Origin: Alphaproteobacteria bacterium | GTDB lineage: Bacteria; Pseudomonadota; Alphaproteobacteria; SHVV01 | Direction of reading: 5' to 3' | DNA: 64,000 nt | Assembly: GCA_965261735.1 (NCBI GenBank) | Contig: OZ253470.1 | Coordinates: forward strand, 3,424,001-3,488,000 | Shown: piece after piece, positions 1,014 to 31,844 of the stretch | Layout of the letters: every line of letters starts with the position of its first letter | How positions within the stretch are numbered: position 1 is the first letter of the stretch | The notes under the pieces: generated by a model | Databases searched by the model: none | Told to the model about the DNA's origin: nothing | Seen by the model: the letters and a program-made list of their open reading frames with translations, nothing else | Made by a program: the position numbers and the translations under genes

Positions 1014-1685
1014 ATGACAGTTTTTCAAATATCGCTGCGGCAAGCCATCGAGGCCTTCATCCAACAGCGCGGCATGACCCGCACCCGCTTCGGAGAGGCG
1101 GCGCTGGGCGATCCGTCCTTCGTCACCGTCTTCCGCCGCGGCCGCTCGCCGCGCCTGGATACCGCCGACCGGCTGCTGGCCTTCATGGGGCTCGAGCCCA
1201 TCGGGCCCGGCTTCCGGCGTGAAGTCGACGCGTTTCTGGCGGTTACCGGGGCCAAGTCCTCGGAACTTGGCCGGGCAGCGAGCGGCAATCCGTCCTTCGT
1301 GAGCTGGCTGCGCCGGGGAGGCGCGCCGCGGCTCGCCACCGTGGACAAGGCACGCGCCTGGATGGAGGGCGCCGCGAGCGCGGAGGAAGTCCGGGCGATC
1401 CGGGCCATGGCGTCCGGGGACGAGGAGATCCCGCAAGACACCTTCAAGGGAGACTGCGACATGGGCGACGACGCCTGGCAGTACATGGGCACGCGCGAGC
1501 TGGCGTCCTTTCTGGGCCTGAGTCCGCGCACGCTGGACCGCTACCGGGTGAGCGGCGGGGGTCCGAAGTTTCACAAGTTCGGCAACCGGGTGCGCTACGC
1601 CCGCGCCGATGTCGAGGCGTGGGCGGCGGAACGCCGCTACAGCTCGACTTCCGACGAGGGCAGTCCCGTCCGGAAGACGGCGTGA
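1014..1685 (+). CDS. Fusion of two tandem Cro-like HTH domains and a C-terminal AlpA/excisionase-type HTH
   Basis: Internal repeat IEAFIQQRGMTRTRFGEAALGDPSFVTVFRRGRSPRLDTADR / VDAFLAVTGAKSSELGRAASGNPSFVSWLRRGGAPRLATVDK, then TRELASFLGLSPRTLDRYRVSGGGPKFHKFGNRVRYARADVEAW. ATG 1014 preferred over TTG 978. Confidence 0.8.
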   Translation: MTVFQISLRQAIEAFIQQRGMTRTRFGEAALGDPSFVTVFRRGRSPRLDTADRLLAFMGLEPIGPGFRREVDAFLAVTGAKSSELGRAASGNPSFVSWLRRGGAPRLATVDKARAWMEGAASAEEVRAIRAMASGDEEIPQDTFKGDCDMGDDAWQYMGTRELASFLGLSPRTLDRYRVSGGGPKFHKFGNRVRYARADVEAWAAERRYSSTSDEGSPVRKTA

Positions 1686-1788
1686 TGGGCGGCCTCGCCG
1701 TCCCGCGGCTCAAGGCACATCGGCAATCCATGTTCACCGGTTCGCCGGACGCGGCGATCACGAACCACCTGCACGGGACACCACGCGT

Positions 1789-3405: not shown

Positions 3406-4730
3406 GCACCATTCTCATTAACGGACGTCCCTTCGCGGCCGGGCTCTACTGGTTGGAGCGGGCCGGTCCGGCCACCACGGCACGCGCCGCGCGCCGCTTC
3501 GCGCGTCCCTGGTGCGTCCACCGGGCGGGTCAGACCGGCTATGCCGGCGGTTCCGAAGGCGACACCCCCGAGGGATTGCCGGCGCTGGCGTTGGCGTTGG
3601 TCGATTCGATCGAGAGCGAGTTCTGGATGGCTCTGGTCGCGAGCGATGCGGCCATGGGCGATGCAACCGATACCGGGCATTACGCGCTGATCAAGGTGCG
3701 CGACGGCGCCGTGCTCGCCGATGGCGATGAGGTTTTTACCGGCCGGGATGCCGCCGTCGAAGCTTTCACCCGCGCGCGGACGCTGGGCTGGGACCTTTAC
3801 GCGACGCCCGGCCTGCTCGCCGGCGGCGCGGACCGCGATGTCACGGACCTCGATGCTTCCAGTCTCACCGCGGCACCGGATAATGTACTGCGCCGCGTGC
3901 CGTTTACGAGAATTGGGCGCGCTCACTTGGCGCTGGCCTTGCTGTTGCCAGCCGCCGTTGCCGGTGTGTGGATCGCCTGGCTCCAGCGCGATGCGGTCCT
4001 GGACTGGATCGCCGGACCGGAACCCGTGGCCGCCGCCGCGCCGCCAACCGACCCGGATCTAGCGGTAGCGGTCGATAGCACCGCGCTGATAGAAGCCTGC
4101 CGGCGGGCATTGATCGATTATCCGCCCTGGCTGCCGGCCTGGCGGATCGAGAGCCTTGCCTGCGCCGCCCGCTTTTCCGATCCCGAACTTGCCGCGCTGC
4201 GCCCCGAACTGGCGGGCCGCGCAGTCATGCTGGCGCGCTGGCGGCTTGGCCCCGGCCACGCCGAGCCCCTGCACCGGCAACTCGCCGAGCAACATCTGTC
4301 GCGCTGGTACGCCGCGTCCGTGGTCGATGCGCGCGCCTGGGCGGTGGTGCCGCTGGCCCCCATGCTCCGCATCTCTGACCGCGCGCCGCTTTCTTTTCTT
4401 GTGTTTCGCCGTGCTGTCGACCGTGAGCTTGGCCTTCGTGGGGCGCAGATCGACTACGCACAGAGCCCGCAGGGCGGCTGGACCGCCCGGATCTCCCATC
4501 CTGGCCCGTTGTCGTACCTCGCCGATCTATTCCGCGAGGCCGCCGGCCTCGCTGGTCTCGAGATCACCGGGCTGGATCTCGGTGCTGACGGGGGATGGCG
4601 CCTGCATGGCCGCCCCGTGGCCCCGGAGGCGATGACGCGTGCGGAATTCCGTGAGCTGACAGGCGCTCCGGCACCGGCCGCGGAGCGCAATTCCGAACAG
4701 TTTCCAAACGAGGAGGCAACCCATGAATAG
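3402..4730 (+). CDS. pilO: Type IVb pilus accessory protein PilO
   Basis: TTG start overlapping the pilN stop, INGRPFAAGLYW N-terminus, VRDGAVLADGDEVF, single TM segment; position after pilN. Confidence 0.8.
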   Translation: MSTILINGRPFAAGLYWLERAGPATTARAARRFARPWCVHRAGQTGYAGGSEGDTPEGLPALALALVDSIESEFWMALVASDAAMGDATDTGHYALIKVRDGAVLADGDEVFTGRDAAVEAFTRARTLGWDLYATPGLLAGGADRDVTDLDASSLTAAPDNVLRRVPFTRIGRAHLALALLLPAAVAGVWIAWLQRDAVLDWIAGPEPVAAAAPPTDPDLAVAVDSTALIEACRRALIDYPPWLPAWRIESLACAARFSDPELAALRPELAGRAVMLARWRLGPGHAEPLHRQLAEQHLSRWYAASVVDARAWAVVPLAPMLRISDRAPLSFLVFRRAVDRELGLRGAQIDYAQSPQGGWTARISHPGPLSYLADLFREAAGLAGLEITGLDLGADGGWRLHGRPVAPEAMTRAEFRELTGAPAPAAERNSEQFPNEEATHE

Positions 4731-7595: not shown

Positions 7596-8470
7596 CCGCC
7601 GCGGGACGTCTTCGCACTCTTGGCGCTTGCCTCGTGGCGATGGTGGTGGCATCGGGTGCATCAGCGCTGGACGCGGTTTCACCGTCCGCGCCGGGGACGC
7701 AATCCGCCGAGGCGGTGGCGGCGGGCTCCGCCGGCGTGAATTCAAAGCCGGCTCTTTCGGTCCCGCCAATGGCGCCATCCACGGGCGCTGCGAATGCCGT
7801 GGGCCGCAGCCGTCTGCTTCGCGTGCTGGACGGCGGGGCGGCCGGGCAACCGCAACCGGCAGGTCCGGGCGAAAAAGCGCGGACGCCAAACGTGCCCATT
7901 CCGAAGTCCGGCATCCCGATACCGGCGATGGCTGCATCCGTCATCGCAGGCTGTCCGCGCGATCTGCTGACCCGGCTGCTCGCGGGTGTGGCGGAAAGGC
8001 AAGACGCGCTGTCCGCCCTGGCGATCGAGCACGAGACCCTGAAGCTATGCCATGAGCGGCAGCTGATCGTGACCGGGATATTCGAGACGGAGGCGCAGTT
8101 GCGGGCGCTCCGGGCGCAGGCGGAACCGGCCGCCGCAAATCGATCCCCGGCGGTGGCTGCCACCGTTCCTTCGGTCATACCGCAATTGAACACGGTCCCT
8201 GCAAAGCTGCCGGCGCCCTCCACGACTCCTCCGAATTCGGCGAAAGCCGCGCCGGCAGCGCCGCGCTATGGCTGGTTCTCGATCGTCGGGATGGCGGGCG
8301 ATCTGCGAGCCGGTGTCACCGATGGGCGGCGGGTCTGGTTCGTGCGCGAGGGCGATCCGCTCCCCGGCGGCGTCCGGGTCGACCGGATCGCCGCGCGCCC
8401 CCCCGGCGTGCAAATCGAGGGTGCGGACGACAGTGCATTGCCTTACAGGGCCAGGCCCGGAGACGGTTGA
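7592..8470 (+). CDS. pilP: Type IVb pilus biogenesis protein PilP
   Basis: Signal peptide, coiled coil, C-terminal SIVGMAGDLRA...VREGDPLPGGVRVDRI domain; immediately before pilQ. Confidence 0.7.
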   Translation: MTAAGRLRTLGACLVAMVVASGASALDAVSPSAPGTQSAEAVAAGSAGVNSKPALSVPPMAPSTGAANAVGRSRLLRVLDGGAAGQPQPAGPGEKARTPNVPIPKSGIPIPAMAASVIAGCPRDLLTRLLAGVAERQDALSALAIEHETLKLCHERQLIVTGIFETEAQLRALRAQAEPAAANRSPAVAATVPSVIPQLNTVPAKLPAPSTTPPNSAKAAPAAPRYGWFSIVGMAGDLRAGVTDGRRVWFVREGDPLPGGVRVDRIAARPPGVQIEGADDSALPYRARPGDG

Positions 8471-10146
8471 TGACCCGGCAACCGGCAAGCACCCGTCCCG
8501 ACACCACCGCCAAGACCATGGCCAAGGCCTTCGCGCGGTTTTTTGCCCGGCCCGGCAGGCGGAACGGCAACGCCGCGGCGGAGACCCCGGATACCAAGCG
8601 ATTGATCCGCGTCCCCGCGATGGACGTCCGGTTCCGGCGCATCTGCGCGGTGTTCGCCGGCGGGCGTTGCTTGATCGCGCCCGGCTACGAGGCCGACGCT
8701 CGGTTGCGCTCGGCGCTGCTGGCGCTGCGCCAAAGCGGCGCCATCCCGGTGGCGGTGGCCGAGGAAACCGCGACCCTCGAAGAGATCGCCGAATGCTGGC
8801 GGGCGGCAGGCGCCGCATCGTCGCCGGCAGCGGGCGAAGCGGCGGCTCGACGGGTCAAACGCCTGTTCGAGGATGCCGCCGCGGCTCGGGCGAGCGATGT
8901 GGTGTTCGAGACCGGCGGGGGCGCCTGTCATGTCTTCGCCATCGTCAACGACCGCAAGCTGCAGCTGGCGGAGCCGATGACGGCCGAGGAAGGCCGCGAG
9001 GCCGCGGGCTTCCTGTTCCATTGCAAGGACGAGGGGTCGTCCCAGACGAGCTACCGGCGGGGCTCGTTCCAGGGCTTCTCGATCCGCGCCGGCGGCCAGG
9101 TACCGCTGCCGGCGGGCATCTCGGCGCTGCGTTGCCAGCGTGGGCCGCACGAGCCCGACGGCGATCACCTGTTCGCGCGCATGTTCTATGCCGACCGGCT
9201 CGACGCCGGCATGACCCTGGAGCGCCTCGGCTTTTCGGCCACCGAAGCCGCGTTGTTCGCCGGGATCCGCATGGCGCCCCATGGCGGCGTCTTCATCGGC
9301 GGCACCGCGGGCGACGGCAAGTCAACCACACTGGCCGTCAATCTCGCCCTGCAGATGGCGGAGTTCGACGGCCAGCTCAATCTGGTGACCATCGAGGACC
9401 CGGTCGAATACCGCATTCCGGGCGCCGTCCAGATCGCGGTGCCGACCTCGGGCCTCGGCGATGAGCGGGCCGGGTATTTCAAGGAAGCGCTGATGCATTT
9501 CTGCCGGATCCACCCGGCCAGCGGCATGGTCTCCGAGATCCGTGACGCCGACGCGGCCCGCCAGGTGATGCAGTTCATCGATACCGGCCATCAGGTATGG
9601 ACCACGATCCACGTCCATTCGGCCAACGCCATCCTGTTCCGGCTGATCGACATGGGCGTCGGCGTGGCCGAGGTGACCAAGCCCGGCAATGTCGCGCTGC
9701 TGATGAAGCAGACCCTGTTGCCGTTGTTGTGCCCGGACTGCGCGCTCGAGCAGCACGCCGAGGGACGCGTTGCCCCGGAAAATCTGGCCGGACGCCTGCG
9801 CGGCAACGGGGCGGTGCGCTACCGCAACCCCAAGGGCTGTCCCCGGTGCCGGCGCGAGGACGGTGGTGCTGTCGCGGCCCGGGCCTGGAACGGTTACATC
9901 GAACAGACGGCGATCGCCGAGACCATCCGGCCCGATGCCGGTTATCTCGCCTTCGTACGCGACTGCGATCCACTCGGCGCCTGGGCCTACTGGCGCCAGG
10001 AGATGGGCGGCGGGCCGATCGGCGGCAAGATCTGGAAACTGGTGTCAGAGGGCGCCGTCGATCCGTTCGATGCGCTGCTCAAGGGTGCCGGTACCGAACA
10101 CGAGGCGTCGGCGAGCCTCACCGTGGTCGCGGAGGCGGTCCGATGA
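8470..10146 (+). CDS. pilQ: Pilus assembly ATPase (PilQ/GspE family)
   Basis: Walker A GTAGDGKSTT, Asp box TIEDPVEY, Walker B region SEIRD, His box TGHQVWTTIH, CPDC/CPRC zinc motif. Confidence 0.92.
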   Translation: MTRQPASTRPDTTAKTMAKAFARFFARPGRRNGNAAAETPDTKRLIRVPAMDVRFRRICAVFAGGRCLIAPGYEADARLRSALLALRQSGAIPVAVAEETATLEEIAECWRAAGAASSPAAGEAAARRVKRLFEDAAAARASDVVFETGGGACHVFAIVNDRKLQLAEPMTAEEGREAAGFLFHCKDEGSSQTSYRRGSFQGFSIRAGGQVPLPAGISALRCQRGPHEPDGDHLFARMFYADRLDAGMTLERLGFSATEAALFAGIRMAPHGGVFIGGTAGDGKSTTLAVNLALQMAEFDGQLNLVTIEDPVEYRIPGAVQIAVPTSGLGDERAGYFKEALMHFCRIHPASGMVSEIRDADAARQVMQFIDTGHQVWTTIHVHSANAILFRLIDMGVGVAEVTKPGNVALLMKQTLLPLLCPDCALEQHAEGRVAPENLAGRLRGNGAVRYRNPKGCPRCRREDGGAVAARAWNGYIEQTAIAETIRPDAGYLAFVRDCDPLGAWAYWRQEMGGGPIGGKIWKLVSEGAVDPFDALLKGAGTEHEASASLTVVAEAVR

Positions 10147-11210
10147 TGGACCCGTTCCGCTTGGGCGTGTTCTGGAGGCGGGCATTCGCCGCGTTGGTGC
10201 TCGGGCGCAAGGCGCGGGTGGATTGCTTCCGGACCGTCGCCGATCTGCTGGAATCGGGCTTCGAGTTGGAGCGCGCGCTCGACGTCACGGTGCGGGCGCA
10301 ACGTGGCCAGGGTCCGTCCTTACGCGCCGGCCTGCTGGAAGGTTGGCGCCGGGCGCTGATCGAGAACCGTTTCGCCGAAGCAATGGCGGCCTCCGCGCCG
10401 CCCGCCGAGGCGATGATCTTCCAGGCCTACGGGCGCATCGAGGCCGCCCTCCTGTTCGCCGCCGCGGCCCGGGTCGCCGACTTGCGCGACCGGCAGATCT
10501 CGGCGGTCCGCAAGGCGCTCGCCATGCCGCTGACGCTGGCGGGCGGGCTCGCCGTCATGCTGTGGGCGGCGGGCGGGTATTTCGTGCCGGTGCTGGAAAG
10601 CGTCGTGCCGCCCGAACGTTGGGGACCCGCCGCCGGCCTGTTCCGCGCCGCCTCGGCCTGGCTCCATGCAGAACCACTCGTATTTTTGGCCATCTGCGCC
10701 ACCGTCGTGGCCGCAATAGGCACGGCGATGGTCCATTGGACCGGTCCCGGCCGGACCGTACTCGACAGGATTGCACCCTTCTCGCTCTACCGCACGATTA
10801 CGGGCTCGGCCTTCCTGTTCGTGGCACTGGAGTTCCTCGGCGCCGGTCTCGATCTCAACGATCGCGCCTTCGAGGATCTGAAACGGCATGCCTCGCCCTA
10901 TGCGCGTCATCGCATCGGCGCGATCCAGCGCGGCATGGCCCGGGGCGCCGGTTTGGGCCGCGCCATGGCGCTGGCCGGGCACGGGTTTCCCGATCCGACC
11001 CTGGTTCCCGTCGCCGCCGCGCTCGATGGCGCGCCCGGTTGGGAAGACAAGCTCGCCCGCTTCGTCGAGCGCTGGGTGGGCCGCTCCGAAGATCTGCTCA
11101 AGTCCCGCGCGGCGGCGCTGAACGGCGCGCTCCTGATCGTCGTGACGCTGGCGATGGCGGCCGGCATCGACGCGATGTTCTCGGTGCTGCAGCAGGCTGG
11201 GCGGTCATGA
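10143..11210 (+). CDS. pilR: Inner-membrane platform protein (PilR/GspF family)
   Basis: ADLLESGFELERAL, three TM segments, PFSLYRTITGSAFL, GLGRAMALAGHGFPD. Confidence 0.85.
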   Translation: MMDPFRLGVFWRRAFAALVLGRKARVDCFRTVADLLESGFELERALDVTVRAQRGQGPSLRAGLLEGWRRALIENRFAEAMAASAPPAEAMIFQAYGRIEAALLFAAAARVADLRDRQISAVRKALAMPLTLAGGLAVMLWAAGGYFVPVLESVVPPERWGPAAGLFRAASAWLHAEPLVFLAICATVVAAIGTAMVHWTGPGRTVLDRIAPFSLYRTITGSAFLFVALEFLGAGLDLNDRAFEDLKRHASPYARHRIGAIQRGMARGAGLGRAMALAGHGFPDPTLVPVAAALDGAPGWEDKLARFVERWVGRSEDLLKSRAAALNGALLIVVTLAMAAGIDAMFSVLQQAGRS

Positions 11211-11354: not shown

Positions 11355-11963
11355 ATGACGGCACAGATGAAAACGGGAATGGCGGGAATGGCGGCCGCCT
11401 TCAAACGCTACCGGGCGCGCCGTTTCCGGCGAGGTTTCAGCCTGTTCGGGGTTCTGCTCGGGCTCGGCCTTGCGGCGGTGGTCATCGTCGGCGCGGTCGG
11501 CACCTACAACGCCGCCCGCGAGGCGGCCAACCGGTCCGAGACGCTGGTGCTGCTGAACCGGATCCGGGCCAATATCGAAGCCTCCTTCGCCGGTGCGCCG
11601 AGTTACGGGAATAACGCCGATCTGGTCGCTGCGCTCGATCGCCGGGGCGGCATTCCCGATAGCGCCCGGACGATCGGGGCCGGCAACAGAGCCCAAATCC
11701 GCCATCCCTTCGGCGGGCTGGTGACGGTCATCGGCGGGCCAGGCGGCATTACCAACCGTTTCCGCATCCGGTTCGCCGATGTCGATAACGAGATCTGCGC
11801 GGCGCTGGGAGATGCCTATGCCGGGCGCAGCCGGGCGCGGGCCGGGGTGATCTCGATCACGATCAACGGCGCCGCTCTCACCTCACCCGTCACGGCAGCC
11901 CAGATCACCGCCGCTTGCGATGACGGCGACGGCGCCAACAATATCGGGTTCATCTTCGGATGA
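11355..11963 (+). CDS. pilS: Type IVb major prepilin PilS
   Basis: Long basic leader ending RRFRRG|FSLFGVLLGLGLAAVVIVGA, SYG and HPFGGLVTV motifs, C-terminal Cys pair; start chosen by RBS. Confidence 0.85.
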   Translation: MTAQMKTGMAGMAAAFKRYRARRFRRGFSLFGVLLGLGLAAVVIVGAVGTYNAAREAANRSETLVLLNRIRANIEASFAGAPSYGNNADLVAALDRRGGIPDSARTIGAGNRAQIRHPFGGLVTVIGGPGGITNRFRIRFADVDNEICAALGDAYAGRSRARAGVISITINGAALTSPVTAAQITAACDDGDGANNIGFIFG

Positions 11964-13099
11964 CGCGCGTGCGCAAACATACATGCGGCGCGGGCGCGCT
12001 GCTCGGCGTGCTGCTGCTGGCGGCATTCGCGGGAACCGCGCTGACATTGCATTACGAGGCGCGCGGACTGGCACGCGGCGAGGCGCTCGACCGGGCTGCC
12101 GGGCGGATATTCGCCACCTGGTTCCGGGCCGCCCACCGGGCAAGCCAGGAGCACGCGGCGGTTTTCGAAACAACCCTCGCGGGCGGGCACACGATTGTCC
12201 TGACGCCGGCGCGATTGCGCGCGCTCGGCACGGCGCCGCCGGGAATGCCCGATGCGCCGGGCCGGAACGCCTCGTTCGCGTTCGGCGTCATCTCCGACGG
12301 CACGACGCGTGGCATTCCAATGGCTTTCGGCGTCCTCGAACCCGCCCCGGACGGTGGAACCGCGCACGGGGTGTCGATACGCGAGGGTGCGCTTGCCGCC
12401 GGTCTCGCCGGCCTGGAATCGGTTGGCGGTGGCGCTCTGATGGCGCCGCATTTGCCGGCGATCGAGGCGGCGCTCGGCCGCCCGCTCGGGCGGGACGCAT
12501 TCTATTTAACCGCCGATCACGGGCTTCGATATCTGGAGCAGGCGCTCTACCAGCGTGCACAGCCCGGCCGGGCGTATCTGAACCGGCTGGAAACCGGCCT
12601 CGACATGAGTTCCGCCGACCCGGCCAATCCGGTGGGCCGGAATATCGTTGCGGCCGGCGCGGTGATGGCGCGCGCGGCAAACTTAAGCGGCACTGCGGAA
12701 ATCGGCGGCAATGCCATGGTGGATGATTCCGTCACGGCCGGGCGGCTCGCCACGGCGGACCTCTCCGCGCGGGAGCTCGACGGCGCGGCGCTGACCGTCT
12801 CCGCCGATCTGATTGTCGGCCATGCCGTGACGGGCGTGGTTTCTACCGCCTCCGTGAAAGTCGCCGAGAGGCTCGACGCGGGAGGCTTGAGCACGGCAGG
12901 CACACTGAGTGCGCGGACGCTCTCCGCCGCCACGGCGGTGTCGGTCGCCGGTGAGGCGGCGGTCACGGGGACGTTCGATGGCGAGGAAACGAGTGTGAGC
13001 GGTGCTCTCCAGGCGGGTGGTATCGCCGCCCGGGCCGCGCACGGTCCGCAAGCCCGCATCGACGGCCTGATGACTGTCGGGAGTTGCGGCGGATGTTGA
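11960..13099 (+). CDS. pilV: PilV-like minor pilin, copy 1
   Basis: Hydrophobic N-terminal helix, LTPARLRALG, LYQRAQPGRAYLNRLETGLDM (PilV constant-region motif), Gly/Ala/Thr-rich repeats, ends GSCGGC. Confidence 0.65.
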   Translation: MTRVRKHTCGAGALLGVLLLAAFAGTALTLHYEARGLARGEALDRAAGRIFATWFRAAHRASQEHAAVFETTLAGGHTIVLTPARLRALGTAPPGMPDAPGRNASFAFGVISDGTTRGIPMAFGVLEPAPDGGTAHGVSIREGALAAGLAGLESVGGGALMAPHLPAIEAALGRPLGRDAFYLTADHGLRYLEQALYQRAQPGRAYLNRLETGLDMSSADPANPVGRNIVAAGAVMARAANLSGTAEIGGNAMVDDSVTAGRLATADLSARELDGAALTVSADLIVGHAVTGVVSTASVKVAERLDAGGLSTAGTLSARTLSAATAVSVAGEAAVTGTFDGEETSVSGALQAGGIAARAAHGPQARIDGLMTVGSCGGC

Positions 13100-14235
13100 T
13101 GCACATGCCGGGACAACGACAAACCGTGTTCTGCCGCGGGTTGAGCCTGTTCGGCGCGCTTCTCGCGCTGGCGCTGCTGGGCATGATCGTCCTTGCCGCT
13201 GCCACCTTCTTCGAGACGCTCGCGGCCGAACGCCGCGCCCGTATCGCGGTGCAGCAATTGACCGTGCTGGCCGATGCAAGTGCAAGCCATGTGCATGGCC
13301 GGTTTCCGGAACTTTTGGCGGCCGCTCGAGGCGGCCCCGTGGAGATCACCCTCGCGCAACTCAAGGGAGCCGGATCGCTGCCGGTGGACTTTTCAGCGGT
13401 GGACGCGCTCGGGCGCGGCTATCGGGTGCTGATCCTCGCCGCGGGTGCGGACGCGATCGATGTCATGGCGGCTGAGAGGGTGGAGCCCGGCGATACGGTC
13501 GCCCCTTCAGCCGGCTTGTTGGAGGCGGCCGGCGAGGCACGCCTCGGCCTGGTCGCGCCCGATGCCCCGTCCAGGCTGGCCGGACCCACCATCGATCATG
13601 ACGTGAACGCCTTCCAGGCGGCTTTTGGCGGCGCCCCGGCTGTGGGTGCCCTGGCGGCGCTGCGCCGCTTCGATCACCAGGCCGTCTACGGCGGCAGGCT
13701 CCAGCGGATCGCTGTGCCGGGCTTCCCGGAAGCCAACCGGATGGAGACCGATCTCGACATGGGCGGCAACACCATTACCGGAGCCGGGCGAATCTCCGCT
13801 GAAAGCCTCTCGCTGGTCGGCGACCTGCAAGCGGGCGGCGATATTGCCGTTAGCGGCGATCTGACGGTCGGACAGGCCGTGCGGGTCGCCGGGACGGTCG
13901 AGGCCGAGGGCGCGATCAGTGCCGATACCGCTTCTCTCGTGGGCGTGGTGTCGAGCGGGTCGCTGAGGGTGAACAGCACGTTGCGGGCCGTAAATATCTC
14001 ATCGACAGGCACCGTCATGGCCGAATCGGTCGCGGCGACAGGGACGGTCACGGCTGGCGGCGCCAATTTCGAGCGTCTTACCGCCAACACGTTGTCGGCC
14101 CGCACGGTGTCAGCCGGTACGCTCTCCGCCGCTTCGGTCAGGGCCGCGGGCATTCGCGTAAACGGGCGCCTCGACGCATCCACGGCCGGGTTCAGCACTC
14201 TCATCGTCGGTCAATGCACGGGGTGCGGCCCATGA
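13099..14235 (+). CDS. pilV: PilV-like minor pilin, copy 2 (shufflon N-terminal constant domain)
   Basis: CRG|LSLFGALLALALLG, EITLAQLKGAGSLPVDFSAVDALGRGYRV, LQRIAVPGFPEANRMETDLDMGGNTI, ends GQCTGCGP. Confidence 0.8.
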   Translation: MHMPGQRQTVFCRGLSLFGALLALALLGMIVLAAATFFETLAAERRARIAVQQLTVLADASASHVHGRFPELLAAARGGPVEITLAQLKGAGSLPVDFSAVDALGRGYRVLILAAGADAIDVMAAERVEPGDTVAPSAGLLEAAGEARLGLVAPDAPSRLAGPTIDHDVNAFQAAFGGAPAVGALAALRRFDHQAVYGGRLQRIAVPGFPEANRMETDLDMGGNTITGAGRISAESLSLVGDLQAGGDIAVSGDLTVGQAVRVAGTVEAEGAISADTASLVGVVSSGSLRVNSTLRAVNISSTGTVMAESVAATGTVTAGGANFERLTANTLSARTVSAGTLSAASVRAAGIRVNGRLDASTAGFSTLIVGQCTGCGP

Positions 14236-14729
14236 AACCCTTATTCGCGCTCACTCTTCTTATAGGGGCGTCTCTCCTGTTGGCCCAATTACAGCCTGTT
14301 GACGCACAGGAACAGGAGGCCGGAAAGGAAGCGCAACCCCGCAGTGCCCTGTTCGAGGCGCTGGAAATCCGCGCAAGCGAAGAAGCGGCGTGGCGGACGG
14401 CGGGAGCCGGCAACGGCGCCCGATCCGTCGAGGCCTGGGACAGGGAACGCGCCTTTGCCGGGATGGAACGGCTGCGCGCCGAGATCGTGATGTTGAGCGG
14501 TCTGCACGGCGCACAACGGGAACTGCTTCAGTGGAACCGCGAGCGGATCAAGACCGGAAGGGCGCCTGCCCTCCTGCCGCCGCGCCTCTGCCGGGAGGCG
14601 GCGCTCAGCGCCTGGTGCCCATTGTTGCCGGCAACCTTCGGCGCGGCCGCCAGGTCGGCCAATACACCGGCCGAACACACCCCGCCGAACTTATCCGGAA
14701 ACGGACCAATAAAGGATGGACTGCAATGA
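14232..14729 (+). CDS. Secreted hypothetical protein
   Basis: Signal peptide (VDA/Q), coiled-coil core, LC..WC Cys pair, ATGA-coupled to both neighbours. Confidence 0.7.
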   Translation: MKPLFALTLLIGASLLLAQLQPVDAQEQEAGKEAQPRSALFEALEIRASEEAAWRTAGAGNGARSVEAWDRERAFAGMERLRAEIVMLSGLHGAQRELLQWNRERIKTGRAPALLPPRLCREAALSAWCPLLPATFGAAARSANTPAEHTPPNLSGNGPIKDGLQ

Positions 14730-15964
14730 CAGATTTGATGATTGGCGGCCTTAGCTCGGGCCTGGTGCTGGCCGCGATGGCGGCTTTGGCGGTGCTGGAC
14801 GCGCGCCGGGCGGTCGTCGATCCGCGCCTGGTGCTGGCGTTGTTCGCCGCCGCGGCCGTATGGCGTTATCTGAGCCCGGACGGTAATAGCCCGTGGACGC
14901 CCTGGACGGGGATGGCGCTCGGTATCGCCGCCGTCGCGCTGCCGATCATCGTTGCCCAATTGCGTGGCCGGCGTTGGCCGCTCTATCCGGGCGACGCGAT
15001 GATGCTGGGGGCTTTCGGTTTCCTGCTCGGCCCGATCGGTCTGGCATGGACGATGCTGCTCGGATCGGCGTTCTCGCTCGCCTACCGGGTTTGGGTTCAG
15101 CGGCGGCGCGGCCGGCGCATCCGCAAAGGCCTTGTGCCACTCGGCCCCGGCATGACCGCCGGGGCGGTCGTGGTGTTCCTGTGCGTCAATTTCGGTGTGG
15201 CGTTCGCTGCCGGCGAACCGCCGCCGCATGGCGTGCCCGGCGTCACGGGAGCGGCGGCCGAGGTAACGGTTTCCCCCTTGCCGGATATCGCGCCCGCAGC
15301 GGCGCCGCTCCCGGCGACGGAACTGGCCCCGGCCAGCACCGCGCTGCCCGAGGCAATTGCCACTCGGGATCTGGTGTTCGAACAACGTGACCCCGTTTCC
15401 TTTCCGGCTGCACTCCGTCGCCTGTCTTCCCTGTCGGGCATCGCGACGGCGATCGAGGAGCGCCCGGCCCGGATCGCCGGCGGGATGGCGATCCTGTCCG
15501 ATCCGCCACCGATCCGCCTGGTCTGGCGGGGCGCCCTTGCCGGCCTGCTCGACCGCCTCGCGGCGCTGAGCGGCTACGACTGGAGCTGGCGCGAAGGAAC
15601 GATCGTCTTCTACCGCTATTGGGATATCGAACAACGCACCGCGGCCGTTGGCTCTGCCGATCGGATCGATGAAGTCGCACTGGACGATTCGTGGATCGTC
15701 GAGGCGGTCGCGCACAAGACCCTGCGCGGCGTGCTTGAGAGTTGGGTGCGCCAGGCGGGTTGGACCCTGGTCTGGAACTCGGCCCGCGATTACGCCGTGG
15801 GATCGAGCCCGGAGCAGGCCGACAACGCTGTATTTCGCGGTGGGTTTCTGGAGGCGGTCGATCAGTTGCTGGCCGGCGATGCGACTCGCCGGGCCCTGTC
15901 GGCGCTCGCCTACAAGGCGAACCGCCATCTGGTGATCGAGGACGCCGGAGCCGCCGGACGATGA
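14726..15964 (+). CDS. pilU: A24 prepilin peptidase fused to a periplasmic secretin-N-like domain and a TcpQ/PilL-like domain
   Basis: LAVLD and YPGDAMML aspartates, VPLGPGM end motif. Continues in frame into WRGALAGLLDRLAALSGYDWSW and TLRGVLESWVRQAGWTLVWNSARDY...FRGGFLEAVDQL. Confidence 0.75.
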   Translation: MTDLMIGGLSSGLVLAAMAALAVLDARRAVVDPRLVLALFAAAAVWRYLSPDGNSPWTPWTGMALGIAAVALPIIVAQLRGRRWPLYPGDAMMLGAFGFLLGPIGLAWTMLLGSAFSLAYRVWVQRRRGRRIRKGLVPLGPGMTAGAVVVFLCVNFGVAFAAGEPPPHGVPGVTGAAAEVTVSPLPDIAPAAAPLPATELAPASTALPEAIATRDLVFEQRDPVSFPAALRRLSSLSGIATAIEERPARIAGGMAILSDPPPIRLVWRGALAGLLDRLAALSGYDWSWREGTIVFYRYWDIEQRTAAVGSADRIDEVALDDSWIVEAVAHKTLRGVLESWVRQAGWTLVWNSARDYAVGSSPEQADNAVFRGGFLEAVDQLLAGDATRRALSALAYKANRHLVIEDAGAAGR

Positions 15965-16491
15965 GAATCCTAACGGCTTTGGCAGTTATCCCAGCCTTGA
16001 TGGTCATGCTCCCGGCTTGCGCCACGTTCGCCCCGGATGCGGCGGTCGCCGTCAAGCAGATCGAGCCGGACCGGGCGGAGATGCTTCTGACCGAGGCCGC
16101 CCTGCGCGCCGAGCGAGCGCTCGTGGCGCTGGCCCGGGCACGCTCGGCGGAAGACCCGCTCGCCGATACGGCGCTGCCACGCATCGTCCCAGCGGCACTC
16201 CTGACCACGGTGACGCTCGATTGGACCGGACCGGTCGAGACCCTTGCCGAGGATCTCGCCCGGCGCGCCGGGTATCGCTTTTTCGCCGCCGGACCTGTCC
16301 CGGGCCGCCCGGCGATCGTCGCCGTCAAGACAACGGATGCGCCGCTGATCGCCGTCCTGCGCGATGCCGGTATCCAGGCCGGACAGGCGGCCGTGCTGAC
16401 AGTGGACGCGGACCGGCGGATCGTGCGCCTCGACTGGGCCACGGTGGATCGTTCACCCCGGACCGGGAAGACAAGGGAGGAGGGCTGGTGA
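15961..16491 (+). CDS. dotD: Dot/Icm lipoprotein DotD/TraH
   Basis: Lipobox MLPAC, VTLDWTGPVETLAEDLARRAGYRF, LRDAGIQAG. Confidence 0.85.
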   Translation: MRILTALAVIPALMVMLPACATFAPDAAVAVKQIEPDRAEMLLTEAALRAERALVALARARSAEDPLADTALPRIVPAALLTTVTLDWTGPVETLAEDLARRAGYRFFAAGPVPGRPAIVAVKTTDAPLIAVLRDAGIQAGQAAVLTVDADRRIVRLDWATVDRSPRTGKTREEGW

Positions 16492-17294
16492 TGCGAACGG
16501 GCGCCCTTGTTTTTCTCCTCCTTCTGATCGCCGGGCCTGTCCGTGCGGCCGCTTCGCCGCCCGACCTGGAGGCGCTTTACGAATTGGCGCCGGCGCCGGG
16601 CGTGGCGATCCCGTTCGCCGAGGAAAAACGCCATTCGGCGATGCGCCTGACGGCACTTGGGTTCGGGGCGCGCGCCGGTCTTGCACGCCGGAGTTGGGAA
16701 ATCGGCGTCATGCTGGAGCGGTTGTCGGCACCGCTCTCCGCCATCTATCGGTTCAGTGATCTGATGCTGACCGAGCAGGGTTTCACGGTGTTGCCGCCTG
16801 TGCTGGCCGAAACCCGCCAGGCCTTCCGGCTAGGGCGGGGACAGGCACGGGCCGCGAGCGCCCGGCGTGTGCTGCGCATCGTCGAGCCCGAGCGGATCGT
16901 GAGCGCCCCGCCGCATTGGCGCGACTACCTGGTCCGCTCGTGGCGGACGCCCGCCCCGCCCGCCGCGGTGCTGTTTCCGCGTACAAGTCCCGAGACCACG
17001 CTGTGGCGGCAATGGCTGGCCGAGGGCTGGGCGCACGGCACGGCGCTCGGCGACGATATCTTCGCCGCCGATCTCGACCGGCTCAACCGGACCTTCGAGG
17101 GCGTTGTGCGCTGGCACCGCCTGCATCTCGCGGACATGGTCTCGGCCCCCGGACTGACGACCGCCCACACCGCCGCTACGGGCCACGAACGTCTGCTGCG
17201 GATCGGCGAGACAAGCGTGCGGCTCGACAGGCGGGCTGCCTTCAATCTCGACACAAGGGCGTGGCGTGTCACCGATGGCGGAGACCTGCAATGA
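16491..17294 (+). CDS. dotC: Dot/Icm DotC/TraI
   Basis: GFGARAGLA, VLPPVLAE, IVSAPPHWRDYL, RLNRTFEGVVRW; between dotD and dotB. Confidence 0.85.
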   Translation: MRTGALVFLLLLIAGPVRAAASPPDLEALYELAPAPGVAIPFAEEKRHSAMRLTALGFGARAGLARRSWEIGVMLERLSAPLSAIYRFSDLMLTEQGFTVLPPVLAETRQAFRLGRGQARAASARRVLRIVEPERIVSAPPHWRDYLVRSWRTPAPPAAVLFPRTSPETTLWRQWLAEGWAHGTALGDDIFAADLDRLNRTFEGVVRWHRLHLADMVSAPGLTTAHTAATGHERLLRIGETSVRLDRRAAFNLDTRAWRVTDGGDLQ

Positions 17295-18550
17295 CCGTGC
17301 GCGCCAACCATTGCACAGGTGGGACAACGTCCTCTTTGCCGGACTCCTACTGGCCCGAAGCGGCGCATGTGTTTCCGGTGGAACGGCTCGACGCCTTCCT
17401 GCTGTGGGCTGCGAAACGCGGCGCTTCCGACATCTCCTTCCAGACCGGCGCGCCCGCCTTCATCGAGGTCGACGGCAAGCTGGCGCGGGCGACCGGCGCG
17501 GCGCTCGACGGTGTTGCGCTCGGCGGCTTGTGCGCACGCATCTTCGATGCCACGGGCGAAGGCATCCTGCGCGGCGGGCGGGCCATCGATTGTTCCCACG
17601 CCGTCGCCGAGGCGCGCGGCGTCTTCCGGCGCTTCCGTTGCAACCTCGCCCCGATGCAGGCCGCGGGCGGTTTTGCCGTCAACATCACGCTCCGGGTTTT
17701 GCCAGGCGCGCCGCCGAGCTTCGAGGAACTGGGCATCGAGGACGAGATCGTCGAGGCCTGGGATCTGCGGCGCGGCCTGACCCTGGTGACCGGCGTGCCG
17801 GGCTCGGGCAAGTCCACCCTGCTCGCCGCCGGCACCCGGCGGCTGCTGGAGCGCGGTGCCGGTCGCATCCAGTCCTATGAGGCGCCGATCGAGTTCGTGT
17901 TCGATCACATCGAGGGAAACGGCGCGCTGATGTCGTCCTCGGAGATCCCCCGCCATTTCCAGAGTTTTGCCGACGGTCTGCGTTCTTCCCTGCGCCGCCG
18001 GCCCGCTGCGGTGATCGTCGGCGAGGCGCGCGACCGCGAGACCGTCGAGGCCGTGGTTCGGGCCGCCGATTATGGCATCGCCGTCTATTCCACCGCCCAT
18101 ACCATTGGCGTCGCGGCCACCATCCGTCGCCTGCTGGCTGAGTTCCCGGCCGGCGAGCGGGCCGAGCGCGGCGCCGCGCTGATCGACGCCATGAACCTCG
18201 CGGTCACCCAGGTGCTGGCGCCTAACCCGGCGGGATCGGACCAGAGTACCTCGGAACGAAGCGGTCGCACGGCTTTGCGCGAATGGCTGGTCTTCGATGA
18301 CCGTCTCAAGGCCGACCTACTGGAGCTGCCGCAAACCGGCTGGCCGGCGCGGATCGAGGCCGCGCTCGCGGTGACCGGCAACAATCTTGCCGCCGCGGCC
18401 GGGCGCGCCTTTGCCGAGGGCCGGATCGGATCGGACGTGCACCGGCGCTACCGCGCATCTGCCGCGGGCGCCGCTGGCGGCGGTGGCGACGCCGACCGGT
18501 CTGGGGGTTACGAGCTCGAAGCCCGATCAGGGAGCCCCGGCACATGTTGA
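17291..18550 (+). CDS. dotB: DotB/TraJ (PilT-like) ATPase
   Basis: GASDISFQTG, Walker A GVPGSGKSTL, YEAPIEFVF, LRRRPAAVIVGEARD, RTALREWLVFD. Confidence 0.9.
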   Translation: MTVRANHCTGGTTSSLPDSYWPEAAHVFPVERLDAFLLWAAKRGASDISFQTGAPAFIEVDGKLARATGAALDGVALGGLCARIFDATGEGILRGGRAIDCSHAVAEARGVFRRFRCNLAPMQAAGGFAVNITLRVLPGAPPSFEELGIEDEIVEAWDLRRGLTLVTGVPGSGKSTLLAAGTRRLLERGAGRIQSYEAPIEFVFDHIEGNGALMSSSEIPRHFQSFADGLRSSLRRRPAAVIVGEARDRETVEAVVRAADYGIAVYSTAHTIGVAATIRRLLAEFPAGERAERGAALIDAMNLAVTQVLAPNPAGSDQSTSERSGRTALREWLVFDDRLKADLLELPQTGWPARIEAALAVTGNNLAAAAGRAFAEGRIGSDVHRRYRASAAGAAGGGGDADRSGGYELEARSGSPGTC

Positions 18551-18562
18551 GGAGACGATTCC

Positions 18563-19458: not shown

Positions 19459-20423
19459 ACTCGAGACCGATCGCGAAGTTCTTACCAAACATTACACTGA
19501 TAATAGCGGCCGTATCGGTTGCCGTGGTTGCGATCCCGGCGTCCCTTGCCGCCGAGCCCGACCTTGTGAGCACGCTCCGGGACAAGGGCGCACAAATCAT
19601 GCCGCTCGGTGCGCGCGGCGGGCTTGCGGGCTATCTCGTGACCCCGGTGGGCGGCGCCGGTTACAGCCTTTATATAACCAACGATGGCCATGGGGTCGCC
19701 GGTCTGCTCTACGGCCCGGACGGGGTGCTGATCACCGGCGGTCAACTCGCCGCCGTGCGTGGAGAAAACCGTCCGGCGGGAATCGCACCGAACCCGCTCC
19801 CGATGCTCGCGCCGAGCGGCGCTGCATCCGTTGCGCCGGTGAGCCGGGAGGCCGGGCCGCCAGGGTGCAGCGTTACCGGGACCGCGCCGCCGGAAGGCGC
19901 TTCCACGATGAACGCACATGGCGGTGGGGCTCGCGATCCCGCCGTCCCGCTCGAAGTGGCAACACGCGATACGGCCAACGGTGCCTCCCGGGCGGTCCTG
20001 TTCGAGCGTGCCGCGTCCGCATTCGGCTTTACCCTCGGCGAGCGCGGATCGCTGGTCGTCCTGTTCGGCGATCCCCACTGCCCGTGGTCGCGCTCGGCCG
20101 TCGCGCGGATCGGCCGCGAGGCGATGGCCGGCAAGCTGCGGCTGCATGTCGTGCCGGTGGCGCTGTTGGGCGCGGCTTCGGCCCACCGCGCGGCGGGGAT
20201 CGCGGCCAGTTCCGATCCGGCGCAAGCCTGGTTCGCCCGCAACGATGGTCCGGCCGACAGGCACGCCCGGGACCGCATCGCGCGTAATAACGCCCTATTC
20301 GATGCTTGGGGCGAGCGCTCCGTGCCGCTGATCGCACACCGCACTATGCAAGGCGGCATCGCGCACCGGGTCGGCGATATCGCCGATCTCAATGCCTGGC
20401 TGCGGGAGCTCGGCGATGAGTAG
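19455..20423 (+). CDS. DsbG-like thioredoxin-fold periplasmic protein with CxxS active site
   Basis: Signal peptide, DsbG-type N-terminus (GGLAGY..LYITNDG), FGDPHCPWS, VPVALLG, NNALF..SVP. Confidence 0.75.
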   Translation: MNSRPIAKFLPNITLIIAAVSVAVVAIPASLAAEPDLVSTLRDKGAQIMPLGARGGLAGYLVTPVGGAGYSLYITNDGHGVAGLLYGPDGVLITGGQLAAVRGENRPAGIAPNPLPMLAPSGAASVAPVSREAGPPGCSVTGTAPPEGASTMNAHGGGARDPAVPLEVATRDTANGASRAVLFERAASAFGFTLGERGSLVVLFGDPHCPWSRSAVARIGREAMAGKLRLHVVPVALLGAASAHRAAGIAASSDPAQAWFARNDGPADRHARDRIARNNALFDAWGERSVPLIAHRTMQGGIAHRVGDIADLNAWLRELGDE

Positions 20424-21057
20424 CCGGGTTCAGGCCATCGCGGAGGCCGCGCGGCAATTCGCCTTCCAGCGCGACCAGCATCATGGTTGGCGCCGCGCCG
20501 CATCGTGGCTGTTGGTGACGAACTTGCTCACGGCTGCAGCCTTCGCGGGGTACGTGTTTTTTCACTCCACGGTCTACATCACCGTGGCCGCGACCCCCGA
20601 TGGACGGCTGGTACCGCTGACGCCGCTCGACGAGCCGATCATGTCCGACGCGGCGCTGCGCAACTGGACCGTCGCGGCGGTCACCGAAGCCTTCACCCTG
20701 GGTCATCACGACTGGCGCCTGCGGCTCGCCGGCATCCGCGGCAAGTTCACCGATAGCGGCTACGAGTCGTTTCTGGCGGGGCTCGACGACAGCCTGTTCC
20801 TCGACCGGCTGCGCGACAACCTCCAGGTCGCCTCGGCGGTGGCCCGGGGCGCGCCGGTGATTACCGATACGCGGCATTTCGCCGGGCGGATCGGCTGGGC
20901 CATCGAGTTTCCCCTTCTGGTCACCTTCGAGGCCGGATCGCGGCGCGCCAGCCAAGATCTGCTGGCCCAGGTGCTGGTCATGCGCGTGCCGCTGGAGGAG
21001 CGCCCCGCCGGAATCGGCATCGAGCAATTGATCGCCAGCAAGGGAGGCGGCTCATGA
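20416..21057 (+). CDS. icmL: IcmL/DotI/TraM
   Basis: ATPDGRLVPLTPLDEP, WTVAAVTEAFT, FTDSGYESF, GIGIEQLI. Confidence 0.9.
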   Translation: MSSRVQAIAEAARQFAFQRDQHHGWRRAASWLLVTNLLTAAAFAGYVFFHSTVYITVAATPDGRLVPLTPLDEPIMSDAALRNWTVAAVTEAFTLGHHDWRLRLAGIRGKFTDSGYESFLAGLDDSLFLDRLRDNLQVASAVARGAPVITDTRHFAGRIGWAIEFPLLVTFEAGSRRASQDLLAQVLVMRVPLEERPAGIGIEQLIASKGGGS

Positions 21058-22034
21058 CCATAAGGACTCTTGCACTTCTATTGCTGGCCCTTTCGCTGCC
21101 TCCGTCGCTGGCGGCCGCGGCCGAATTAGCCAACCCAACCGCCGAGCCTGCCAGACCCGCCGAGTCCGCCGAGACCGACGTCTGGCCCGAACACGCCCTG
21201 CCGGATGCCGACGCTGCCCGGCAGGGCCGGTCCGCCTTGCCGTTCACGCAAGAGCAGATCGAGACCCTGGGCCGGCTGTTGCGCCAGACCCAGCGGGCGA
21301 GCGCGCGGGGCGCGGGCGCACCGCCACAAGGCCGTATCCGGCGGATCCGCCTCGACGCGCCGGGCGACGGGCAAATTCCGGTGATCGCGCTAAGGCGCGG
21401 CTACACCACGGTGCTCTCCTTCACTGGCATGACCGGCGCGCCCTGGCCGATCGCCGAGACTGTGCTCGACAGCCGCTTCCTGCCGCCGGGCCGGGAGGCC
21501 GCGCCGGAAGCGGCCAATGCCGGCGGCGGCCATTTGCTCTATCTGGCGCCCCGCCAGGCCTATCTCGACGGTAACGCGGTGGTGACGCTGGCTGGTCTCG
21601 CCGAGCCCCTGGTGGTCGCCCTGCGCGGCACCGGCGGCGCTGCCGACTTCCGGGTCGATATCCGCCTTGCCATGCCCGGGCCGAACGCCGATCCGGCCTT
21701 GCTGGCGCAACCCGAGGGGTTCCACGCCGGCGATCCGGTGCTGCTCGGCCTGCTCGGCGGCGCCGTGCCGCCGGACGCCGAACGGCTTGCCATCGAGGGC
21801 GGCGGCCACGAAGGCCGCGCCTGGAGGCAGGGCGGCGGTCTGCTGCTGGTCACCCGCGCATATCTGCTTTCGCCCGGCCCTTGGGCAGCCGAACGCGGCC
21901 CCGGCGGCCGCTGGGCCTACCGCTTGCCGGACACCCCGCAGGCGCTCGTAAGCGCCCGGGGCCGCGAGATCCGGCTTTCGTTCCGCTCAATGGAAATCAC
22001 AACGCAATTACAGGACATCGATGATGAACGATAG
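21054..22034 (+). CDS. icmK: IcmK/DotH/TraN
   Basis: GYTTVLSFTGMTGAPWPI, GNAVVTLAGLAEP, RVDIRLAMPGPNA, LLSPGPW. Confidence 0.85.
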   Translation: MTIRTLALLLLALSLPPSLAAAAELANPTAEPARPAESAETDVWPEHALPDADAARQGRSALPFTQEQIETLGRLLRQTQRASARGAGAPPQGRIRRIRLDAPGDGQIPVIALRRGYTTVLSFTGMTGAPWPIAETVLDSRFLPPGREAAPEAANAGGGHLLYLAPRQAYLDGNAVVTLAGLAEPLVVALRGTGGAADFRVDIRLAMPGPNADPALLAQPEGFHAGDPVLLGLLGGAVPPDAERLAIEGGGHEGRAWRQGGGLLLVTRAYLLSPGPWAAERGPGGRWAYRLPDTPQALVSARGREIRLSFRSMEITTQLQDIDDER

Positions 22035-31723: not shown

Positions 31724-31844
31724 TGATTCACACTGAATAAGCCGGTAATACGCGCGGCGAGCGGTGCTGGACCGGAAGCCTCAACGAACGCACTCCAGAC
31801 CGGTCTGGAATTTCGCCTGCAACCAATGAAGGAATTTGAAACTC

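Follow-up and report, generated by a model that had tools for sequence, protein, structure and literature searches.

Pilins lacking the +5 glutamate in an R64-like type IVb pilus operon of an alphaproteobacterial conjugative element

The window analysed here is a stretch of 64,000 nucleotides (contig OZ253470.1, positions 3,424,001 to 3,488,000) from an alphaproteobacterial genome of 5.03 Mb and 69% G+C. On its forward strand lies a pil operon that includes a weakly matched PilN-like secretin (1609..3405; Pfam Secretin, Secretin_N and Secretin_N_2 with E values between 5e-4 and 1.3e-3, none reaching its cut-off), a PilO-like protein (3400..4730, start approximate) encoded towards the 3' end of open frame 1827-4730 (PAP_PilO, E 3.2e-4 at residues 536-780, below cut-off), a PilQ-like assembly ATPase (8467..10146; T2SSE, 9.5e-38) placed as pilQ is in R64, and a PilR-like platform protein (10146..11210; T2SSF, 6e-4, below cut-off, and a weak NCBIfam ComGB match) in an R64-like position. 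Next come three genes that fit the span 11355-14235, which a sequence-only reading had assigned to pilins: pilS, for a type IVb major prepilin (11355..11963; Pfam PilS, 1.9e-11; Bundlin, 1.9e-6); pilV1, for a PilV paralogue with a pilin-like N terminus (11960..13099), recognised by its similarity to PilV2 and its modelled helix; and pilV2, for a PilV-type minor (adhesin) prepilin (13084..14235; Shufflon_N, 3.4e-12). The position of R64 pilT is occupied by an open frame for a 171-aa protein (14214..14729), probably exported given its signal-peptide-like N terminus; Pfam and NCBIfam scans matched it to no family in place of the PilT lytic transglycosylase. The operon continues with a short PilU-like prepilin peptidase fused to a C-terminal TcpQ-like domain (14726..15964; TcpQ, 7.4e-13; Peptidase_A24, 1.3e-3, below cut-off).

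Also on the forward strand are a DotD/TraH-like lipoprotein (15742..16491; DotD, 1.9e-24), a TraI/DotC-like lipoprotein (16017..17294; T4SS_TraI, 1.2e-59), a DotB/TraJ-like ATPase (16916..18550; T2SSE, 2.8e-24), DotI/IcmL-like and DotH/IcmK-like T4BSS components (20392..22034; Pfam 7.7e-39 and 2.3e-42) and a type IV coupling protein (31836..33818; T4SS-DNA_transf, 1.9e-37; TraG-D_C, 2.4e-21). An MPF_I set of DotD, TraI/DotC, DotB, DotI, DotH and coupling protein is thus present, all above Pfam cut-offs. Judging from this gene content, the pil operon is part of a conjugative element that is integrated in the chromosome and has a Dot/Icm-like (MPF_I) transfer system. The gene set compared with that of the R64/IncI thin pilus (secretin, PilO, ATPase, platform, pilin, peptidase, PilV) is found, in the same order, beside the traH/I/J homologues, with several of the Pfam scores below cut-off. 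With the R64 (IncI1) thin pilus the window shares Pfam families and the gene order pilQ-R-S-(T)-U-V beside traH/I/J, as well as a long basic leader and a short peptidase without a methylase domain; it differs in its TcpQ-like fusion on the peptidase, in being a chromosomal element, and in having two tandem PilV genes without shufflon repeats. The paralogues are present instead of a shufflon. At the pilV 3' end we found no sfx repeats, just weak inverted repeats of 14-27 nt with 70-88% complementarity, and no recombinase (such as Rci) was matched by Pfam among the scanned open frames of the window.

Translation of pilS gives a 27-aa leader, MTAQMKTGMAGMAAAFKRYRARRFRRG, followed by FSLFGVLLGLGLAAVVIVGAVGTYNAARE, with predicted cleavage at RRG/FSLFG (here and below the slash marks the predicted site). 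The basic leader, its terminal Gly-1 and the ~20 hydrophobic residues beyond it make up a predicted class III signal peptide. Mature PilS would carry Gly at +5, its first acidic residue being E29. Both family matches exceed their thresholds (PilS, 44.6 bits with cut-off 22; Bundlin, 28.6 bits with cut-off 22.3), and the AlphaFold (AF2) model (pLDDT 91.2, helix 30-77) has the type IVb fold of a long alpha-1 helix and an alpha-beta globular domain. Searched against the PDB with Foldseek, the model matched S. Typhi PilS best (3fhu_A, 2.1e-7) and then TcpA/CofA filaments, all at probability 1.00 and E 2.1e-7 to 2.4e-4 (top entries 3fhu_A, 8uhf and 9iuf). An alignment of 44 family members (A1) retains the C-terminal cysteine pair, C148 being invariant and C188 showing at least 90% conservation. 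Tip minor pilins of the GspK/PilX type also lack Glu5 (PMC10191384). These are single-copy caps in systems whose other subunits keep Glu5, whereas here it is the PilS-family major subunit itself that lacks it; assignment of PilS to that type is ruled out by its PilS/Bundlin family matches and the major-pilin folds that it resembles.

The two PilV proteins also lack the residue. PilV1 begins MTRVRKHTCG/AGALLGVLLLAAFAGTALTLHYE, with no acidic residue before +23 after CG/AGALLG, and PilV2 reads ...QTVFCRG/LSLFGALLALALLGMIVLAAATFFE, with Gly at +5 in CRG/LSLFG. Translation and alignment therefore bear out the earlier observation that none of the three pilins has Glu5. PilV1 and PilV2 are 32% identical over their C-terminal 200 aa. 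A long N-terminal helix (residues 3-64) is predicted for PilV1, with block-mean pLDDT of 75-93 over residues 11-190; a Pfam scan of the protein gave no match, and Foldseek found nothing in the PDB at E <= 0.001 for a model that is confident only over residues 11-190. Its N terminus is conserved across related loci. PilV2 matches annotated plasmid PilV by tblastn and aligns with R64 PilV. A tblastn search with PilS gave no match in the plasmid collection.

Gly27, the -1 residue before FSLFG, is an invariant column both in A1 and in a second alignment (A5) of 12 sequences that includes R64 PilS (DKG/WAILE) and R64 PilV (DRG/WASLE). In A5 the Gly5 of PilS and PilV2 shares a column with the Glu5 of R64 PilS and PilV. 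Prepilin peptidases require Gly at -1, and the +5 residue of the clade is itself an invariant Gly, so that this 'Gly5' might instead be the true -1, with FSLFG in the leader and a mature start at VLLGL; such a pilin would still be without Glu5. We consider this shift very improbable: the first Gly, which comes directly after the basic leader, is invariant family-wide and shares its column with Gly-1 in R64 PilS and PilV. The Gln, Ser, Leu or Pro found at +5 in sister lineages could not act as -1, and some PilV2 homologues have Glu there.

Cleavage after the invariant Gly would most likely be carried out by the element's own short peptidase, as the alignment suggests. The operon peptidase is the sole A24-like match in the genome, scoring 19.5 and 23.6 bits in two scans against a Peptidase_A24 cut-off of 26.5. 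Its motifs AVLDARR and YPGDAMM correspond to AVTDALT and GTGDLWL in the alignment with R64 PilU, and the two Asp residues so aligned would be the catalytic pair. The PGD motif is retained in most related loci, and the fusion with TcpQ is a single open frame in most of them. The peptidase comprises a short A24-like core without the N-terminal methylase domain, an absence that the sequence-only reading had noted correctly and offered in support of an unusual pilus. As an argument this does not hold, because R64 PilU (218 aa) likewise has no methylase domain while R64 PilS and PilV retain Glu5; the missing domain is not diagnostic. The same facts bear on a different explanation, in which the mature pilin has a chemically blocked or otherwise neutral N-terminal amine, a counter-charge becomes unnecessary and selection acts against Glu5, which would sit unpaired in the filament core; the pilus would then be the same and differ in modification, not packing. 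A peptidase without a methylase domain would fit this, as would the N terminus of R64 PilS, which is reportedly modified. However, R64 has the same kind of peptidase and keeps Glu5, and the unassigned proteins of the operon all start in a signal-peptide-like manner and were matched to no modifying enzyme in the Pfam scan. We regard a blocked amine as unlikely.

Related loci, all from metagenome assemblies, indicate that Gly5 is not an error. RRG/FSLFG occurs in PilS at 36 of 36 related loci (24 assemblies), a count biased by the search pattern (alignment A2, narrower than A1), which itself contained GFSLFGVLL. Among 34 full-length pilS genes the Gly5 codon is GGG in 16, GGC in 16 and GGA in two, and a second clade, found with other patterns and having the same synteny, has G/LTLFG or G/LSLFG, the former in both PilS and PilV2. 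These three lines agree with the earlier view that sequencing error does not account for the missing residue. For the second clade a metagenome scan found only three loci, and tblastn of an LTLFG-type query against the plasmid collection returned only 10 distant records of <30% identity. A D5-type relative (P0059) had no tblastn match in the same collection. On the evidence of these sequences, non-acidic +5 is a property of the lineage, shared by the major pilin and its PilV-type partners, and 'pilus subtype' was a fair description of it. Close homologues of PilS have Gly5 and only distant ones Glu5, in keeping with the earlier claim; at four of the 36 related loci the PilV2 homologue does have Glu5, and Gly is therefore not obligatory in the minor pilin.

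For the family-wide view, counts, tree and pairs test were drawn from the best 150 of 434 family hits, after removal of 17 named rows by hand and of rows scoring <22, since fragments, and frames preceded by a long open sequence, had the site misplaced. Among 117 representatives with a clear site, +5 is Glu in 48, Asp in 16 and non-acidic in 53 (G 35, Q 8, S 5, L 3, T 1, P 1). Non-acidic residues cluster in one half of the tree, where +5 varies widely (G, D, E, Q, S, L, P). The window PilS sits in a 20-row clade without acidic +5 (G 14, Q 3, S 2, L 1; SH-aLRT 83, not starred). In raw counts an aromatic F/W at +4 accompanies 45 of the 53 non-acidic residues against three of the 48 Glu5, a strong association that loses its support when kinship is taken into account; only five independent pairs on supported branches are available (p 0.5), of which 1.7 go in the same direction, 0.0 in the opposite direction and 3.3 show no difference. 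A small residue at +9 showed no trend with acid loss in the independent-pairs test, which had too few pairs.

Such variability at +5, together with the failure of experimental Glu5 mutants to homopolymerise in the mutagenesis summary of PMC4471445, which lists R64 PilS among them, could mean that the pilins are made but form no extended homopolymer, in a short pseudopilus-like or decaying system where Glu5 was lost under relaxed constraint. Against this stands purifying selection on PilS (median pairwise dN/dS 0.28 over the mature protein in the 34 full-length genes), which is strongest in the N-terminal helix (0.135 over the first 30 codons). The 34 genes are intact, and within the clade Gly5 is fixed and shows no drift. 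Most related loci have undamaged neighbouring open frames, and several assemblies have more than one copy of the locus. We consider such a pseudopilus-like or decaying system improbable.

TP114 (IncI2) and the pKLC102/PAPI-1 types are R64-class type IVb conjugative pili with PilS as major and PilV as minor pilin, as in the window. TP114 PilS has Glu5 (PMC9045228), and pKLC102 has Glu5 in both PilS (QGG/FVSIE) and PilV (SSG/FISIE), unlike the window; in R64, too, both pilins have Glu5 where PilS and PilV2 of the window have Gly5. S. Typhi PilS, V. cholerae TcpA and ETEC CofA share their fold with the window PilS model, which lacks their Glu5. Archaeal type IV pilins and archaellins, with a class III signal and often without Glu5 according to passages in PMC4471445 and PMC10710030, show that filaments lacking the salt bridge have a precedent. 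They have no homology with the window pilins past the N-terminal helix, whereas the globular domain and machinery here are bacterial type IVb.

We therefore read the replacement of Glu5 as the mark of a working pilus that assembles without the salt bridge between Glu5 and the N-terminal amine, since Gly5 appears to be kept by selection. In full, our preferred reading is that the three genes encode the subunits of a type IVb conjugative thin pilus, R64/IncI in type, in which Gly has replaced Glu5 and been kept by selection and which assembles without that bridge, and we put its probability at roughly 60%. PilS would be the major subunit, with PilV1 and PilV2 as tandem PilV-type adhesin pilins; Glu at +5 would have given way to Gly in PilS and, at most loci, in PilV2, the replacement being retained by selection. 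A compensating change would be needed, because Glu5 mutants are unable to homopolymerise, and here we can offer candidates only. Hydrophobic and aromatic packing, with helices in close contact, may let subunits dock in place of the salt bridge, the candidate residues being the conserved F/W at +4, the small-residue (GxxxG-type) motif G5-xxx-G/A/S9 and Ser/Thr2. As in archaeal type IV pili, the unmethylated N-terminal amine might have no partner or form a hydrogen bond. The 'different assembly chemistry' proposed in the sequence-only reading may take this form.

No residue of bacterial type IV pilins is more conserved than Glu5, and assembly models give it the roles of charge neutralisation and subunit docking. 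Reviews describe it as invariant in bacterial pilins and as required for assembly of R64 PilS. Our search of the open-access literature for major pilins without Glu5 found none, returning only minor pilins, archaea and unrelated papers. We hold it an even bet that IncI-like integrative conjugative elements of uncultured Alphaproteobacteria carry a natural type IVb pilus lineage whose filament is built from a major pilin with no acidic residue in its N-terminal helix, the salt bridge being dispensable given some packing solution, for which Phe4 and G5xxxG9 are candidates. Such systems would probably escape pilin finders whose motif makes Glu5 obligatory. A major subunit in which Glu has been exchanged for Gly, Gln, Ser and others under purifying selection amounts to a natural experiment on the role of Glu5, and the family could be used both in sequence-swap experiments and for cryo-EM. 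If the reading is true, the salt bridge between Glu5 and the N terminus, deemed universal and essential in bacteria, would be dispensable.

One 5.03-Mb contig (G+C about 69%) contains the window, which carries a conjugation module between 1.6 and 34 kb. Pfam places a secretin (weak match) and a PilO-like protein in its upstream part, along with a T2SSE ATPase (8467-10146), a T2SSF-like platform protein (10146-11210), PilS (11355-11963; PilS 1.9e-11, Bundlin 1.9e-6), PilV2 (380 aa, 13084-14235; Shufflon_N, the PilV constant region, 3.4e-12) and a fusion of a short A24-like peptidase with a TcpQ-like domain (14726-15964). PilV1 (380 aa) occupies 11960-13099, and an exported protein of 171 aa without a recognised family is encoded between PilV2 and the peptidase; all features with coordinates here are on the plus strand. 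DotD, TraI/DotC and DotB homologues follow the peptidase, and after them DotI, DotH, SSB and a coupling protein, also by Pfam. R64 has pilQ-R-S-(T)-U-V and then traH/I/J, and the window has the same gene order. By this content and R64-type order, the module is an integrated conjugative element of IncI-like (MPF_I) type that encodes a type IVb thin pilus of the R64 class; its R64-like gene set is complete and includes its own peptidase.

Several neighbouring features stand apart from the pilins. Within the pil operon lies a 546-aa exported protein (4723-6363; NCBIfam CFI-box-CTERM 1.5e-10, barely above cut-off) that has no recognised counterpart in R64, and downstream of the DotB-like ATPase comes another TcpQ-domain open frame (18544-19458, Pfam 6.7e-9). 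G+C drops to 0.61-0.67 across 32000-54000, where the genes, a P450, a LuxR-type regulator and a Calx-beta protein among them, look like cargo; ARAGORN's odd tRNA call at 44618-44705, whose anticodon has two bases, falls within the Calx-beta ORF and is probably spurious. A Strawberry-notch-like helicase of 1528 aa (55315-59901, minus strand; AAA_34 1.9e-108, Helicase_C_4 1.1e-88) adjoins DUF2201 metallopeptidase/VWA genes.

The sequence-only reading held that PilS, PilV1 and PilV2 lack Glu5, and the translations bear this out: PilS reads ...RRFRRG|FSLFGVLLGLGLAAVV (the bar marks the predicted cleavage site), PilV1 ...HTCG|AGALLGVLLL and PilV2 ...FCRG|LSLFGALLAL, the earliest acidic residue of mature PilS being E29. 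The sole invariant column of a 44-member family alignment is the Gly preceding FSLFG, and the same holds when R64 PilS and PilV are included. In that alignment the +5 sites are homologous, the Glu5 column holding Gly5 of PilS and PilV2, whereas R64 PilS (DKG|WAILE) and R64 PilV (DRG|WASLE) both have Glu5. Cleavage after the second Gly, rather than after the invariant one, is highly improbable. The predicted structure of PilS (pLDDT 91.2, alpha-1 helix at residues 30-77) finds its best PDB matches in S. Typhi PilS (3fhu_A, E 2.1e-7) and the TcpA and CofA filaments; because of the alignment, the confident model and these type IVb fold matches, PilS is, as judged from sequence and model, a type IVb major pilin in all tested respects bar Glu5.

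A full-library HMMER search returned 434 relatives (E <= 0.001), and in the best 150 of these the motif reads G|FSLFG, G|LTLFG or G|VSLFG in the nearest, to about 40% identity, G|LALFD or G|IALFE further out, and G|FSLLE or G|LTLIE in the remotest; the proposed alignment of homologous PilS thus finds Gly5 in the nearest relatives and Glu5 in more distant ones. A genome-collection scan gave 36 related loci in 24 assemblies, nearly all MAGs labelled Alphaproteobacteria or Rhodospirillales, several with two to four copies. RRG|FSLFG is present in 36/36 loci, partly by construction, the search pattern being GFSLFGVLL. The DNA nevertheless varies, with Gly5 codons of GGG (16), GGC (16) and GGA (2) in the 34 full-length genes and a median pairwise dS of 0.58, so the related pilS genes are independent sequences; dN/dS has a median of 0.28 overall, falling to 0.135 over the first 30 codons. 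A metagenome scan with other patterns recovered three loci of a second Gly5 clade (LTLFG), with gene order as in the window, PilS G|LTLFG or G|LSLFG, and PilV2 G|LTLFG in both loci that reach it. The missing Glu5 is neither error nor relic: three Gly5 codons, purifying selection and the independent LTLFG clade dispose of a sequencing error, which the sequence-only reading had likewise argued against. A non-polymerising or decaying system, to be set beside this conservation, is unlikely.

Several assemblies have three or four diverged locus copies each (L008, L010, L024, L034; L013, L014, L016; L006, L009, L029, L030), 71-78% identical to the query PilS, so related elements coexist within one genome or bin. 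A MAG labelled Dehalococcoidia has one further locus on a 442-kb contig (L036; G|FSLFG, PilS 50% identical), which could be transfer or mis-binning.

Across the family, a PilS match occurs in 66/401 sampled Alphaproteobacteria genomes. In 30 fetched loci, with site placement wrong at several, the FSLFG type appears only in the window's genome and two others, and canonical Glu5 in 19 sites read. Among 117 representatives with a clear site (17 rows taken out by hand, plus rows scoring under 22), +5 is Glu in 48, Asp in 16 and non-acidic in 53 (G 35, Q 8, S 5, L 3, T 1, P 1). Of 105 mature pilins on a quick ML tree, 39 rows form one side, 36 of them Glu, and 66 the opposite side (G 25, D 14, E 12, Q 6, S 5, L 3, P 1), a split weakly supported at SH-aLRT 76; the query PilS belongs to a clade of 20 rows, none with an acidic +5 (SH-aLRT 83), and the LTLFG clade has Gly in 7/7 rows (SH-aLRT 99). 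When the tree is built with the first ten residues left out, acid versus non-acid at +5 requires at least 10 changes. A cluster look-up covered ten non-Glu5 representatives (eight non-acidic, one Asp5) and one Glu5 relative, all from clusters of 1-3 assembly-derived sequences.

The peptidase was also taken as a sign of unusual chemistry. It does lack a methylase domain, but so does R64 PilU (218 aa), which serves Glu5 pilins, and the absence therefore does not separate the two systems; both Asp motifs align with PilU. Its core is about 170 aa, and most related loci keep the fusion to the C-terminal TcpQ-like domain (Pfam 7.4e-13) as a single open frame, whereas R64 and pKLC102 have a separate gene for their TcpQ-domain protein. 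The 5.03-Mb genome has no A24-like match besides this one, so the host seems to be without any further peptidase for type IV filaments.

PilV1 and PilV2 are paralogues (32% identity over 200 residues, both ending in VGxCxGC); the PilV1 model shows a long N-terminal helix, with confidence over residues 11-190, and matches no PDB structure. The two stand in tandem (11960-14235) where a shufflon would stand, and a search of 11900-14800 gave no inverted repeats of sfx type. At 36 sites examined, PilV2 homologues carry G (31), E (4) or S (1) at +5, so at the level of sequence major and main minor pilin share the Glu-to-Gly shift, which is not absolute in the minor. The Glu5 cases (L023, L024, L028, L029; G|LGLFE or G|LSLFE) accompany a Gly5 PilS, the Ser5 is in L005, and L025 and L030 have Ala, not Gly, at -1. 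PilV1 homologues read [R/C/L]G|AGAL[L/V] throughout, except in L005 (G|ASELLG) and the LTLFG-clade loci L071-L073 (G|SAELFG, G|AAELFG), which have Glu at +3, where window PilV1 has Ala.

According to PMC4471445, Glu5 almost invariably breaks the hydrophobic stretch, is often absent only in archaea, and its mutants, R64 PilS included, cannot homopolymerise. Its absence has been ascribed to a tip-capping minor pilin (PMC10191384), and other papers have it present in TP114 PilS (PMC9045228) and needed for retraction, not assembly, in the V. cholerae minor pilin TcpB (PMC5207764). PilS and PilV of pKLC102 both have Glu5, unlike window PilS and PilV2. In open-access full text, our searches turned up no bacterial major pilin family described as lacking Glu5.

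We infer that the pilins would be cleaved after Gly27 and polymerise, other contacts taking over from the Glu5 salt bridge; candidate replacements are an aromatic residue at +4, a G5-xxx-G/A/S9 motif and Ser/Thr2. In raw counts, +4 is F or W in 34/35 Gly5 pilins and F, W or Y in 45/53 non-acidic versus 3/48 Glu5 pilins, and +9 is small in 35/35 Gly5 versus about 18/48 Glu5 pilins. These associations are largely lineage effects; an independent-pairs test, without power at only five pairs on supported branches, gave no trend between small +9 and loss of the acid. That the mature pilin's N-terminus is instead blocked seems doubtful. Of the proposed subtype with different assembly chemistry, the lineage-wide Gly5 stands and the chemistry itself remains conjectural. 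The window pilus is an R64-class type IVb conjugative pilus in a variant without Glu5, the observation confirmed and its interpretation partly supported; a filament, if shown, would surprise specialists.
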